Shown in pieces: positions 2,038 to 64,000 of a DNA stretch of 64,000 nucleotides. Under the pieces are notes generated by a model. It was given only the letters and a program-made list of their open reading frames with translations. It was not told the origin of the DNA and did no database searches. Position 1 is the first letter of the stretch; the number at the start of each line of letters is the position of its first letter. The stretch lies in IMG/VR virus record IMGVR_UViG_3300042315_000659. One strand, 5' to 3'. This DNA comes from an uncultured virus (IMG/VR IMGVR_UViG_3300042315_000659). Lineage: Duplodnaviria > Heunggongvirae > Uroviricota > Caudoviricetes. The position numbers and the translations under genes are program-made.

Positions 2038-2742
2038 TTACCGTTTTTTATCGTTTCTCATGAGCATTCGACCGCCTCGCCATCCCCGTGCTTTTTCTCG
2101 TTCGGTTTCGAGTAGGTTGAATTTAGCTATATCGCGCTCTTTTTCAGCGTGTAATTCTTCGATCACTAGCCGCTTATAGTCAAGCATCGAGTTTTTACTG
2201 CTAAAGTCAGCGATCATAGTCTTTTGAGTTTTGATCAACTCCTCTAGTATTTGCTTCTCTTCGCTTAGTTTGACGATTTGGCTCTCAAGTTGCCTTACCT
2301 CTGTAATTGCCTCGCTCTTGACGCGAAAACCAGCTAATGTGTGAAGGAATAATCGGACTCCTAGCTTAAGCACTTGAGAGGCTAACTCAGGATTATCCTT
2401 TGGCAACCACTTACAGATTAGGTCTTCTGGGATTAGATAAACCCCTTGCAACCCGCCCTCTGTTTGAATTTGAGCCTGTTTTAGCAATCCTAATCCTAAC
2501 CCCATTGTGTTACCCCCTTGTAACCTGCTCCCTGTTTGAATTTGAGGGCGATTTGGAGATTCAGAAGTTACCCCCTTGCTATCTTCTTTAGATAGCCGGT
2601 TTAACCGCATAGTGATAGCGTTGGAGCTTTTCCCAGACATACGAGCATATCCTTTGATTGAGGCAAAGCTTTCACCGGTCTGAGTGTCGATAATTAGCTC
2701 GATGCCGTCGTGATCAAAACGTTGTAAAATTAGATCAGCCAT
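2038..2742 (-). CDS. Phage antirepressor/KilA-N-like DNA-binding protein with C-terminal coiled coil; paralog of 15272..15796
   Basis: QRFDHDGIELIIDTQTGESFASIKGYARMSGK shared with 15272..15796; family assignment is inference. Confidence 0.55.
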   Translation of the reverse strand: MADLILQRFDHDGIELIIDTQTGESFASIKGYARMSGKSSNAITMRLNRLSKEDSKGVTSESPNRPQIQTGSRLQGGNTMGLGLGLLKQAQIQTEGGLQGVYLIPEDLICKWLPKDNPELASQVLKLGVRLFLHTLAGFRVKSEAITEVRQLESQIVKLSEEKQILEELIKTQKTMIADFSSKNSMLDYKRLVIEELHAEKERDIAKFNLLETEREKARGWRGGRMLMRNDKKR

Positions 2743-3885: not shown

Positions 3886-4959
3886 TCACTGTGTGTATTT
3901 TTGTACTGATTGTTCTGTAAACCACTGTAAATAAATCTGATGCGCTATCTGTGCAGTCATTACAGGAGGAACTGACATACCAATTAAATACTTTGGATCG
4001 ATATTTTTAAAGTTGTAATCGAGTGGATAGCTACCAATTAGGCAAGTTGCTTTATTTGATATATAATTATTTAAGTTACTGTGTATTAGTTTATTTTTGT
4101 TTGCTATTACTGTTAAAGGCGTTTGATTTTCTAAGCAAACAAAAGTAAATCCAATACCGCCGATTTTGCCATTTAAACTTTTTTTATGTGTTTGTAACGC
4201 ACCTGTTGATGTTATAGGGTTTTTTAAAAGTTTTTTTATATAATTACATTTAATTGCTTCTCCAATTTCATTTGTTCCAAATTCACCAAACAAAATTGGC
4301 TCTTCATTAAAACTTAACTCTAGATTTTTAAAGTTTAAATCATTCCTTTGGCAAATAAAAAATACTCGCTCACGTTTTTGAGGCACTCCCATGCTCGCAG
4401 CATTCAAAAGAAATAACTGTACTTTATATCCTGCTTTTTTAAATTCATCTTTTATTCGCTTTACATACGCTTTGGCATTACCTTGAATAATTCCTTTAAC
4501 ATTTTCAGCGATAACGACCTTTGGCTGTAGTTTTTTTGCTAATCGTATGTAATCAAAGAAAAGGTCATCAAGTCGCTGTTTAGCCTGACCTTCCCTAAAT
4601 ACTTTTTCTTTCCCCCAGTCTTTTTCTCTATTTCCTGCCATGCTAAATGAAGAGCAGGGAGGTGAGCCGTCTAAAATATCTAGGTTGTAAAGTTCATCGG
4701 GAAGAGTTGCACGATCAGCAAAATCTCTTATATCTTCAATAAATAAATATTTAGGATTGTGGTTAGCTTTATATATATTAGCTACTTGCGGGTCTATTTC
4801 AACACCTCCTAAATGGTCAAAACCTGCTAACTTGTAACCCATAGTCGAACCACCGCCACAGATAAAAGTACCAAATACTTTTAACCCATGTTTTTCAATT
4901 CCGGGTGCTGGGTATCCATCTGACAAATTCCACTTATATGCAAATTTATGTTTAGTCAT
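3886..4959 (-). CDS. DNA cytosine-C5 methyltransferase
   Basis: Motifs FICGGG, GSPPC, ENV, QKRERVF. Confidence 0.92.
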   Translation of the reverse strand: MTKHKFAYKWNLSDGYPAPGIEKHGLKVFGTFICGGGSTMGYKLAGFDHLGGVEIDPQVANIYKANHNPKYLFIEDIRDFADRATLPDELYNLDILDGSPPCSSFSMAGNREKDWGKEKVFREGQAKQRLDDLFFDYIRLAKKLQPKVVIAENVKGIIQGNAKAYVKRIKDEFKKAGYKVQLFLLNAASMGVPQKRERVFFICQRNDLNFKNLELSFNEEPILFGEFGTNEIGEAIKCNYIKKLLKNPITSTGALQTHKKSLNGKIGGIGFTFVCLENQTPLTVIANKNKLIHSNLNNYISNKATCLIGSYPLDYNFKNIDPKYLIGMSVPPVMTAQIAHQIYLQWFTEQSVQKYTQ

Positions 4960-56538: not shown

Positions 56539-56664
56539 TTCTCCTCTAAAATTTGATTAATACAATCTTATAGTAGATTACTAGAATTGTCAAGTATTTT
56601 TAAAAAAAAAACTTGCAAAAAACTTACAAAAAGATAATAGTACAGAAGAACTAAGTTATTATCG

Positions 56665-61857: not shown

Positions 61858-62179
61858 CTTGCAATCTACTTAACAAGTCAAGCCGATTGTTACAAAAAAG
61901 GAGATTAAAAATGTATAACGATTATAGCACTTGCAATCTACTTAACAAGTCAAGCCGATTGTTACTCCCCTAGATAGCGAGGATCGGGAATTTTGGCAAT
62001 GCTTGTAATCTACTTAACAAGTCAAGCCGATTATTACGTGGCAACGACCTATCGCCCTATCTGAATTGGCAACTTGCAATCTACTTAACAAGTCAAGCCG
62101 ATTGTTACAAAACCCACCGATCCAGACACTTTAGCGGTTCTGGCTTGCAATCTACTTAACAAGTCAAGCCGATTGTTAC
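61858..62179 (-). CRISPR. CRISPR array: 5 repeats of 36 nt, 4 spacers of 36, 36, 35 and 35 nt
   Basis: Repeats at 61858-61893, 61930-61965, 62002-62037 (2 variants), 62073-62108, 62144-62179; minus-strand consensus GTAACAATCGGCTTGACTTGTTAAGTAGATTGCAAG; strand inferred. Confidence 0.96.
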
Positions 62180-63852
62180 CCAGTCTCCCAGAGTGTAAGC
62201 TGCGTATAGCCTGCGTTGACTGTTTGCGCGGGTTGCGAGTGGATCGACCTTTTCCTTGTTTTTTTCTTGGGTGTCACTGGCTCGGAGGTCAAAACCAGTA
62301 AGGTTTCGAGGGTTTCTTCCCCAAGTAACAATCGGCTGGACTTGTCAAGTAATTCCTCCTGCGCTGATTCCTTATCGAAATCCTTCAGAGGCTTAACTTC
62401 CCCGGTACAAGCCGGGTAGCTTCTTACGAAGTCTGCTTTCCCTAAGATGTTGATTGCGGCGGCCACATCTCTGGGTAAAGTACATCCACACTCTAAACAT
62501 TTATGGGTGCGGGTTGATAAACTTTTTTTAACACGATTGCCACAGCGAGGACAATCCTGACTGGTGTAAGCTGGTTGAACCTTGATAAACTCTCGGTTGG
62601 GAGTTTTCATTTTCGTTTCAAGAAAACCGGTTAATTGTCCTAAACTAGCATCAGCAAAGGATTTATTTAATCCCCCTTTGGCTTTCGCGTTATTGCGTTC
62701 GTAGCCTTTACCGTCTTCTCTTTTTTTCGGTTTAGGTCGTCGCATTAAATTCTTTAAGTTGAGGTCTTCTACGGCTACAGCGCCATGATTTTTGACAATA
62801 TCGGTACTTAGGGCATGATTAAATCCTTTGCGTTGTCTTGCTATTTTTTCGTGAGTTTTAGCAACTTTAGCACGAGTTTTAGCGAGATTTTTGCCGTCTT
62901 TATTTTCCCCTGCTTTATACTGTCTAGCGGTTTTTCTTTGCAGTCTTGCTAGTCTTTTTTGCTGTTTTCTATAGTATTTGGGCGGGTCAATTTGTTGGCC
63001 GTCGCTGGTACTAATTATATATTCTAGTCCTACGTCAATACCGATTGCTTTATCGGAATCAGGTAGATCATCTACTTCAAATTCACCAAATAGACTTAGA
63101 TAATATCCCGATGGGTATTTGATAATTGATACGGTAGAGGCTTTTCTGTCACCCCATCGAATGTCTAAAATATTGTTGATAATCTTTAAATCGCCTAATG
63201 TTTTACTACAGCTACCTATAGATATTTTATCCCCTTTTCTAACAGCGCAATTGCTGATCTCAGAATAAAGAGATTTAATTTTATCTTCTTTTCTTTTAAA
63301 TCTAGGAAGTTTTCTGTCTAAATTCTTTTTATCGAGTTTGGTGTAAGCTTTCCAGGAATCAGCAAGCTTTTTTAAAACCCCTTGGACAAAAGCCATAGGG
63401 ATGTCCTTGCATAGCTCTGGACATTTTTCTTTTGTAATACAGCCACATAACCCAAAATAATTATCAGATTTTAACCGCCGTTGAATAGGAATATGAACAG
63501 GATAAGAGTGACCTGCTTTTTGTCTTTTTTCTCTAGCTATCTGTATTTTAACTTTTTGCTTGCCAGTTAAATATTTAGGGGTGTAAAGGGGATTAGGAAG
63601 GGATTTACCTTTTTCGTTTTTCAGGGAGTCAATAAATTGAGGTTTTTTAGCTAAACGACGTTTAACCCGTTTAACTGGTTTTTTTGTTATTTTCTCAAGC
63701 TCGTCGTAATATTTATTAAGCTGATATTCCATCAGTAGCTCTAGTCCAAAATTCCAGACAGCTTTAAGCTCGTCCATCCAGCGATCAATATAGGCTCGCT
63801 GAGTGGCATTAAGGTTAAGTTTTATGTCCGCAATAGTTTTCTTGACTAGCAT
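62176..63852 (-). CDS. TnpB/Cas12f-like RNA-guided nuclease (558 aa), CRISPR-associated
   Basis: RuvC-I IGIDVGL, RuvC-II VAVEDL, Zn finger CPRCG..CLECG, RuvC-III RDVAAAINI; stop codon lies within the first repeat. Confidence 0.92.
   Translation of the reverse strand: MLVKKTIADIKLNLNATQRAYIDRWMDELKAVWNFGLELLMEYQLNKYYDELEKITKKPVKRVKRRLAKKPQFIDSLKNEKGKSLPNPLYTPKYLTGKQKVKIQIAREKRQKAGHSYPVHIPIQRRLKSDNYFGLCGCITKEKCPELCKDIPMAFVQGVLKKLADSWKAYTKLDKKNLDRKLPRFKRKEDKIKSLYSEISNCAVRKGDKISIGSCSKTLGDLKIINNILDIRWGDRKASTVSIIKYPSGYYLSLFGEFEVDDLPDSDKAIGIDVGLEYIISTSDGQQIDPPKYYRKQQKRLARLQRKTARQYKAGENKDGKNLAKTRAKVAKTHEKIARQRKGFNHALSTDIVKNHGAVAVEDLNLKNLMRRPKPKKREDGKGYERNNAKAKGGLNKSFADASLGQLTGFLETKMKTPNREFIKVQPAYTSQDCPRCGNRVKKSLSTRTHKCLECGCTLPRDVAAAINILGKADFVRSYPACTGEVKPLKDFDKESAQEELLDKSSRLLLGEETLETLLVLTSEPVTPKKKTRKRSIHSQPAQTVNAGYTQLTLWETG
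62325..62425 (-). ncRNA. Candidate tracrRNA/omegaRNA-derived scaffold embedded in the nuclease ORF
   Basis: Anti-repeat at 62325-62351 (25/27 complementary to the repeat); hairpin at 62401-62416 with loop CUUGUA complementary to the repeat 3' end. Confidence 0.75.
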
Positions 63853-63888: not shown

Positions 63889-63918
63889 AATCTACCATAA
63901 CCCTGCTAGAAATGTCAA
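63889..63918 (-). promoter_or_regulatory. Promoter of the nuclease gene (TTGACA-18-TAGATT with extended TG)
   Basis: Read directly; resembles the TTGACAATTCTAG promoters at ~47610 and ~56590. Confidence 0.6.
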
Positions 63919-64000
63919 GTAAGAAGTCTAAAGATTTTTTGGGATACCAGTTCCCACATCAGAACCTATAGCCCAACCCTTATAAAAGTTAAAGGCAGTA

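Follow-up and report, generated by a model that had tools for sequence, protein, structure and literature searches.

The stretch of DNA analysed here, the window, comprises 64,000 nucleotides (nt) from an uncultured virus of the class Caudoviricetes (IMG/VR record IMGVR_UViG_3300042315_000659), and close to its end it carries a CRISPR locus in which a nuclease gene, P0001, a repeat-spacer array and, within the 3′ end of the gene, a candidate guide-RNA scaffold with an anti-repeat lie together (Table 1). The array is directly downstream of the gene and the stop codon of the nuclease falls inside the first repeat. P0001 matches the NCBIfam model of C2c8, subtype V-U2 (NF038192), at 371.5 bits over residues 9–443, where the cutoff is 350, and contains the Pfam domains OrfB_IS605 and Cas12f1-like_TNB, the second of these a zinc ribbon. 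The RuvC residues D273, E362 and D462 and the zinc-finger cysteines C434, C437, C452 and C455 are invariant in a protein alignment across 31 homologues; among proteins of solved structure, those nearest to it in sequence are an AI-designed TnpB-like nuclease, Cas12p and ISDra2 TnpB.

Related loci (designated L and a number) were drawn from reference genomes, viral contigs and metagenomes; a search of genome contigs with the single protein returned no relative, one with a profile was successful, and the locus DNA had no match in the phage collection searched. A nuclease 93–100% identical to P0001 is encoded on 28 IMG/VR viral contigs, on 27 of which the same repeat was detected, and the cyanophage vB_AphaS-CL131 has a homologue of 38% identity with an array of its own. 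Many related loci retain arrays, with 4 to 28 repeats each. The spacers of the present array differ between phage contigs that are otherwise 97–100% identical, which a CRISPR array would be expected to show. Adaptation genes were not noticed among the listed neighbouring open reading frames (ORFs), and no search aimed at cas1 or cas2 was made. On these sequence comparisons the locus is assigned to the type V-U2 (C2c8) CRISPR systems as a phage-borne member.

Table 1. Features of the V-U2 locus (positions in the window)
Feature	Position	Strand	Basis
CRISPR array (repeat length 36 nt, five copies; spacer length 35–36 nt, four copies)	61858..62179	minus	
Nuclease ORF P0001, 558 amino acids (aa), type V-U2 (C2c8)	62176..63852	minus	ORF translation, family models
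C-terminal peptide QLTLW, motif [QE]LxL[WF], codons 551–555	62188..62202	minus	L552 nearly invariant in protein alignment
Anti-repeat (R:AR-2), complementary to repeat nt 1–27/28, codons 501–510	62325..62352	minus	repeat search, duplex energy
Guide-RNA scaffold (H1, linker, H2), codons 479–500	62353..62418	minus	covariance model, covariation, minimum-free-energy fold
Nested stem H2, outer 62391–62387 with 62359–62355, inner 62382–62377 with 62371–62366	62355..62391	minus	
Hairpin H1, stem 62416–62412 with 62405–62401, loop CUUGUA 62411–62406	62401..62416	minus	
Promoter-like site, upstream of P0001 (TTGACA, 18 nt, TAGATT)	63889..63918	minus	consensus match only

The original prediction, made from the letters of the window, had described a hairpin, CCCGG-CUUGUA-CCGGG, upstream of an anti-repeat hidden in the nuclease coding sequence, and a nested stem between the two. 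Hairpin and nested stem, here H1 and H2, are both found on the minus strand, and together they make up the minimum-free-energy fold of a 68-nt stretch. The sequence GAAGUUAAGCC lies directly 3′ of H1, which ends 49 nt ahead of the anti-repeat. The same architecture recurs in related loci just after the codon for the invariant Tyr479, in very different sequences.

The scaffold of H1 and H2 is conserved with compensatory changes, which the original prediction had named as a check. The main test of covariation used an alignment (A4) in which 11 diverged loci were aligned by MAFFT alone, with no fitting to the structure, and onto which the pairing was written by hand. In A4, 93.3% of the cells pair, compared with 67.6 ± 2.7% in shuffles, none of 500 of which reached the observed value; the covariation score was 0.682 versus 0.182. 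Both partners change in 10 of the 15 pairs (a count attained by 39 of 500 shuffles), namely three of the five H1 stem pairs, all six inner H2 pairs and one outer H2 pair, and when the partners were slid by one to three columns as a control, pairing was only 32–52%. Stem variants of H1 include CCCGG/CCGGG, CCGCG/CGCGG, CCCCG/CGGGG and CCCUC/GAGGG, and the three residues flanked by the Pro and Gly codons of H1 vary freely across homologues. A covariance model built from A4 (R1) gave 60 matches at E values up to 1 in 76 sources and scored the window scaffold at 61.4 bits (E 1.9e-13). The alignment fitted with R1 comprises 40 distinct rows and is biased towards the structure; in it, 92.4% of cells pair, and both partners change in every one of the 15 pairs. 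The group of loci resembling phage CL131 was omitted from the seed of R1 because MAFFT misaligned its 12-nt insertion, and in this group the model matched H1 alone (22.9 bits).

The loop of H1 covaries in turn with the 3′ end of the CRISPR repeat. In the window the loop CUUGUA can form six pairs, one of them U·G, with the last six repeat bases UGCAAG, as had been proposed, and the two elements are predicted from their covariation to form a pseudoknot next to the spacer (repeat:anti-repeat pairing 1, R:AR-1). Scoring the first four loop bases against the last four repeat bases in the 26 rows with a detected array, a set from which an internal second scaffold copy in L124 is excluded, gave six complementary classes (CUUG/CAAG, CUUC/GAAG, CUUU/AAAG, GUUC/GAAC, GUUU/AAAC and GUUG/CAAC). 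The fit is strictly Watson–Crick in 22 of these rows, against 0 of 70 in a cross-class control. Two of the misses, L126 and L129, have repeats ending in UAAG, which gives a G·U pair; in the other two, L014 and L177, the consensus repeat was cut short: L176, the sister of L014, shows GGAAC, and the repeat of L177 continues to GCAAG. The array of L124 looked ambiguous in orientation and was kept as found because its H1 loop CUUC fits the repeat end GAAG. By eye, loci without a detected array also fit (L010, L121, L128, L059, L190, L229, L191, L206, L015, L187 and L012), with GUUC/GGAAC in L121 and L128 and CUUU/AAAG in L010; L009 adds a seventh class, AUUG/CAAU, and L011 is not counted among the fitting loci. 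The pairing is extendable to six pairs in the window, L008, L126, L181, L127 and L188.

At the anti-repeat, an inverted copy of repeat nt 1–27 had been reported with 25 of 27 positions complementary, and this is what was found at plus-strand positions 62325–62351, the two differences being one U·G wobble and one U·C mismatch. The arms of the inverted repeat are 27–28 nt long and 93% complementary against four of the five repeat copies. Within 5 kb outside the array the best duplex of the repeat is at this very site (−43.0 kcal/mol); the median over the 1,828 windows of the scan was −11.7 kcal/mol and the first percentile −22.1 kcal/mol. When repeats were swapped, the tail of the window gave −41.8 kcal/mol with its own repeat and −28.3 kcal/mol with the best of those from 18 other V-U2 families. 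Across the 19 families, the own repeat came first in five (the window, L127, L014, L007 and L119) and second or third in L193, L186, L192 and L185. The CL131-like loci (L007, which is phage CL131, L119 and L129) have anti-repeats 132–143 nt before the array, the distance in the window being 144 nt; their anti-repeats differ from that of the window and match their own repeats (−27.1, −33.3 and −28.8 kcal/mol, respectively). What sets the window apart is a single long, continuous anti-repeat immediately after H2; in relatives, a further two hairpins occupy that place.

Besides protein, the final 80 codons of the nuclease gene encode a conserved, folded RNA able to pair with the neighbouring repeats, and judged by the comparisons that follow, constraints from RNA and from protein both seem to act on this tail. 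The ORF of L127 stops before the scaffold, which is intergenic there yet kept. In CL131 the annotated ORF stops 33 nt into the scaffold, so that the RNA is mostly intergenic, and the scaffold is likewise kept. On the protein side, the first in-frame stop lies −31 to +54 nt from the first repeat in 23 of the 27 array-bearing rows (the exceptions are L185, L001, L003 and L007; L127, counted among the 23, is not continuous with the nuclease frame), and the other two frames meet stops after 8–155 nt. AlphaFold2, run with the 31-sequence alignment, gave residues 484–558 a predicted local distance difference test score (pLDDT) below 50 with no secondary structure, the onset coinciding with the start of the scaffold; the tail following RuvC-III is therefore predicted to be disordered. 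Among strains, 30 of 31 sequences (the window and 30 near-identical contigs) are equal in length and represent 22 distinct versions. In these, five polymorphic sites lie within H1, its loop, H2 and the anti-repeat (62404, 62407, 62370, 62346 and 62345); pairing is preserved or strengthened at all five, although three of the changes alter an amino acid, which speaks for constraint on the RNA. The tail has 7 synonymous and 7 nonsynonymous changes, too few to compare with the 54 and 37 of the gene body. In most C2c8 homologues the motif [QE]LxL[WF] occurs 3–12 codons before the stop, following a variable, basic, disordered linker. Its codons differ between lineages, and the peptide resembles a sliding-clamp-binding motif of bacteria.

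Scaffold matches were also found away from the 3′ end of a nuclease gene. In the sister phage contigs L103 (1169–1282 and 1584–1835) and L112 there is another scaffold (35.8 bits), accompanied by another array whose different repeat ends in UUGAAAC, about 700–1300 nt upstream of the nuclease gene and beyond position 64000 of the window; because of this second scaffold and array, the phage seems to carry two tandem guide modules of V-U2 type. The internal copy in L124 (3023–3088, 56.5 bits) lies in frame in the middle of the nuclease ORF, corresponds to a 40-aa insertion in protein P0018 and has a loop without the NUUN pseudoknot bases. Further matches lie at 2262–2324 (minus strand) and 6217–6285 in L128, and at 2038–2098 and 2639–2701 in L015; two or three such additional matches per contig suggest multiple V-U2 or TnpB-like modules per genome. 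In four loci without an array, a repeat-like unit of about 14 nt follows the ORF stop (L128 at about 4095–4110, L009 at about 4015–4030, L059 at about 4003–4016 and L121 at about 4100–4150). By eye, these solo units are the 5′ end of a repeat joined to its pseudoknot-forming 3′ end, a layout nearer to that of a fused omegaRNA.

Some further sequence features of the window locus were recorded. The 9-mer TACTTGACA, which contains the −35-like TTGACA, occurs on the minus strand within the promoter-like site that precedes the nuclease gene (63913–63921), at a second site 7 kb away (56588–56596) and in the interior of the anti-repeat (62343–62351). The only Rfam match in the tail, to PreQ1 (62250–62304; 16 bits, E 5), lies outside both scaffold and anti-repeat and was rejected. 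On the plus strand, the terminal spacer of the array (61894–61929) looks like a ribosome-binding site with an ATG; in the nearest genome of the set searched (locus L003), the same spacer is found over 31 of 31 nt (420–450), is terminal there too, stands beside a degenerate repeat and belongs to an array of a different V-U2 repeat type. Against phage records this spacer gave chance-level matches only (E 0.1 or worse), and the remaining spacers matched only the same arrays of sister contigs. Spacers common to V-U2 and other cyanobacterial arrays are mentioned in a preprint (10.1101/2021.02.06.429022).

Our interpretation, to which we give a probability of roughly 0.8, is that the scaffold in the 3′ tail of the nuclease gene supplies, together with the CRISPR RNA (crRNA), an omegaRNA-like dual guide. 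The sequence supports a layout that may be called ‘split’, in that the scaffold overlaps the 3′ end of the ORF as the omegaRNA does in tnpB, and the guides lie in separate repeat-spacer units. Nuclease gene, scaffold and array are probably co-transcribed from the promoter-like site upstream of the gene, and the 3′ part of the messenger RNA (mRNA), from about 62420 to at least 62325, would fold into H1 and H2. The first four to six bases of the H1 loop (CUUG, then UA) would pair with the repeat end of the crRNA that abuts the spacer on its 5′ side (CAAG, with UG before it), and the 27–28-nt anti-repeat would form a duplex with repeat nt 1–27, such that scaffold, repeat and spacer together would resemble a TnpB omegaRNA cut in two, one part being like a tracrRNA (trans-activating CRISPR RNA) and the other a crRNA. 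The nuclease would bind this assembly and cut DNA that matches the spacer, and the same DNA would also be translated into a disordered tail ending in a conserved short peptide. TnpB is reported to cut the omegaRNA out of its own mRNA; by analogy, the scaffold could be excised from the transcript of mRNA and array by the nuclease itself, or else by RNase III acting on the 27-bp duplex. We infer that the RNA is made and, by analogy with Cas12n, Cas12p, Cas12f and TnpB, that it is bound by the nuclease and acts in trans on all repeats; the element may descend from an omegaRNA.

A number of results weigh against this interpretation. The folding energy of the 68-nt scaffold is unexceptional (z = −1.73; 9 of 200 shuffles fold as well) and that of the 246-nt tail is z = +0.31; because thermodynamics alone are weak, the case for structure rests on covariation. 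Of the two nucleotide alignments, the one made with R1 is fitted to the structure. An Rfam scan returned no family at gathering score. In the swap control, where the global duplex search was noisy, the own repeat came fifth or worse in 10 of the 19 families (L124, rank 8; L008, 10; L188, 6; L174, 8; L126, 13; L181, 8; L001, 13; L013, 5; L117, 6; L178, 10), so that long continuous anti-repeats are not general in V-U2. By eye, those ten families have complementary stretches of only 7–12 nt, which usually pair with repeat nt ~24–33, abutting the pseudoknot bases, sometimes with a second stretch that pairs with the repeat 5′ end. The strain variants that leave pairing intact at five of five sites are mostly transitions, about half of which would do so by chance. 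From the gene start to the scaffold, the minus strand yielded no promoter-like site; a terminator scan likewise found none after the anti-repeat. Nor did the searched literature contain a V-U2 nuclease activity, protospacer-adjacent motif (PAM) or RNA requirement.

Expression data bear on the same question. Part of the stretch is contained in 18 metatranscriptome runs, in all of them as contigs, and four runs from four studies were examined; assembled contigs cannot show RNA ends, strand or level, and parts of the gene left uncovered in some runs are not readable as absence of transcript. In run X2 a contig of 273 nt equals 62150–62422 from end to end with no differences and stops 4 nt short of the scaffold. 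X7, which derives from a diverged strain, has a contig that covers 62080–62403 and ends inside H1; the letters that follow 62403 we take to be sequencing adapter. These two ends hint, weakly at best, at an RNA 5′ end near 62403–62422, and contigs in X1 (62144–62586) and X4 (62151–62568) run on past the scaffold, a further point against a separate RNA. Every contig breaks inside the first or second repeat, as expected because spacers differ between strains.

The same contigs enter into the alternative that survives best, which we consider possible though on balance improbable. Here mRNA, scaffold and array would be one transcript that works in cis only: the anti-repeat in the ORF would pair with the first repeat 145 nt downstream, so that spacer 1 would have a single guide of natural origin and/or the mRNA would be destroyed by cleavage, and the main role would be autoregulation of nuclease level rather than the supply of every spacer with a trans-acting tracrRNA. 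With the stop codon in the first repeat, neither a terminator nor a promoter has room between gene and array, the scan showed no promoter-like site inside the gene, and the contigs of X1, X2 and X4 bridge the tail and the first repeat; the solo or truncated repeats behind the ORFs of L128, L009, L059 and L121 would be workable only in cis, and the reported self-excision of the TnpB omegaRNA from its mRNA offers a precedent. Many loci nevertheless retain arrays, with 4 to 28 repeats, and to guides from these the scaffold would be available only in trans or once the transcript had been processed. This alternative is also compatible with the dual-guide interpretation, since a cis precursor can yield a trans-acting RNA and both may coexist.

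A far less probable explanation is that the locus is a transposon-type TnpB with its omegaRNA, the repeats being an omegaRNA or right-end array whose role is transposon maintenance and not phage-encoded immunity. P0001 does match TnpB models, NF040570 with 226 bits and, with E 1.5e-20, ISDra2 TnpB; the ORF listing showed no adaptation genes beside the locus, and some relatives have a single repeat-like unit. The C2c8 model nevertheless scores higher and above its cutoff, where IS200_TnpB (175 vs 425) and IS607_TnpB (87 vs 350) fall short; spacers differ between contigs of 97–100% identity; and the guide is not fused to the scaffold, with 144 nt from anti-repeat to first repeat. Scarcely credible, finally, is that the anti-repeat is a functionless relic, for instance a degenerate inverted copy of the repeat that recombination with the array had left behind, and that the hairpins follow only from coding constraint on YP...GEVKP...QEE. 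In its favour, the protein alignment shows partial conservation of the peptide YPxxxGEVKPxK..SxQEE, the Pro (CCN) and Gly (GGN) codons are enough to fix the outer two pairs of H1, and the folding energy is unremarkable. Against it, both partners change in the inner H1 pairs and in each of the six inner H2 pairs, with the intervening amino acids varying freely, the scaffold is kept where it is untranslated (L127, CL131), constraint on protein leaves the covariation of loop and repeat end unexplained, anti-repeats differ by lineage and match their own repeats, and nonsynonymous strain variants preserve pairing.

A bolder form of the dual-guide interpretation, which we think unlikely, is that the nuclease mRNA is itself the tracrRNA precursor, coupling guide maturation to protein output. 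The crRNA repeats would then pair with the anti-repeat in the ORF and the mRNA would be cut upstream of [QE]LxL[WF]; if this were true, the phage would switch between a full-length nuclease with the peptide and a truncated or silenced one by the amount of array transcript. On this bolder reading the V-U2 clade would show several stages in the split of an omegaRNA into tracrRNA and crRNA side by side, because some of its loci have only a solo or truncated repeat behind the ORF. The dual-guide interpretation makes V-U2 a second, independent Cas12 lineage that has kept the position of the omegaRNA in the gene, which bears on the evolution of CRISPR systems from TnpB. In practical terms, the scaffold, the pseudoknot rule and the anti-repeat are what rebuilding the 450–680-aa V-U2 nucleases needs: they indicate which RNA to co-express, in which orientation to read the array and at which point to fuse a single guide. 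The region is also a compact natural case of RNA and protein constraints on the same codons, and the carriers are freshwater cyanophages found in many metagenomes, for which the system may matter in competition between phages or between phage and host.

A V-U2 guide scaffold or tracrRNA was not described in the literature searched, supplements and some primary Cas12 papers being outside the reach of that search. V-U2 is listed without PAM or size in the table of a 2024 review (PMC11641405), and its function was called unknown in a review of 2021 (PMC7889808). The one paper found on a phage V-U2 locus concerns phage CL131 (MG209611), whose homologous cyanophage nuclease is likewise followed by an array of 36-nt repeats. 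That paper reported that tracrRNA sequences were absent around the locus and considered that the system may be regulatory (PMC6293099). The present analysis finds the same scaffold in it (L007, 3872–3946) and an anti-repeat at about 3993–4027, with two extra hairpins ahead of the anti-repeat that the window does not have.

Closest in layout is Cas12n (type V-N, formerly V-U4), in which the tracrRNA overlaps the ORF within a disordered C-terminal tail (PMC12216341 and the preprint 10.64898/2026.03.27.714800), a pseudoknot forms with the guide-adjacent repeat bases, the array is downstream and adaptation genes are absent. P0001 differs in belonging to C2c8, and the Cas12n chain 9J09 matches its residues 287–474 only (E 2.2e-16). 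The Cas12n tail is described as dispensable, whereas the V-U2 tail ends in [QE]LxL[WF] and in most loci its frame is open up to the array; the V-U2 hosts here are cyanobacteria and cyanophages. Cas12p (the ‘Cas12 hacker’) is comparable in being phage-borne, 500–700 aa in length and equipped with a disordered C-terminal domain. According to a preprint (10.1101/2025.01.20.633832), its R:AR-1 is a 4-bp pseudoknot between tracrRNA nt 7–10 and crRNA −1 to −4, with a conserved AAAC:UUUG pairing, and is called characteristic of Cas12 tracrRNAs. The AAAC:UUUG pairing is also that of the L185/L001/L003 class, and the loop 4-mer of the window is at scaffold nt 8–11. Cas12p is the second-best solved relative of P0001 (9jfs, E 4.8e-26), with the RuvC half alone aligning (residues 265–459), and requires host thioredoxin.

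Cas12f shares the combination of one short and one long repeat:anti-repeat pairing, a two-part design that has been compared with the omegaRNA (PMC10097598). Its tracrRNA lies between gene and array and not in the ORF (10.64898/2026.03.27.714800), and it acts as a dimer (PMC12255294). As in ISDra2 TnpB, the RNA lies across the 3′ end of the gene for its nuclease (here codons 479–510 of 558), combines stems with a pseudoknot that involves the bases just 5′ of the guide, and accompanies the same RuvC and zinc-finger core; in the ISDra2 omegaRNA, bases −5 to −3 beside the guide pair with −103 to −105 (PMC10097598). In TnpB, however, the guide is fused to the omegaRNA and comes from the transposon flank, whereas here it comes from a repeat-spacer array and an anti-repeat is needed. 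The splitting of an omegaRNA into tracrRNA and crRNA was proposed in the discussion of PMC10097598, and also by Jin et al. (Cell 2025), as cited in PMC13565253 and in the preprint 10.64898/2026.03.27.714800. Because the Cas12n layout and the splitting hypothesis are already published, the novelty is lower than the original prediction had judged it: a pseudoknot combined with repeat:anti-repeat pairing is on record for TnpB, Cas12f and Cas12p, and the layout in the tail of the ORF, although new for V-U2 in the literature searched, follows a principle already described for Cas12n.

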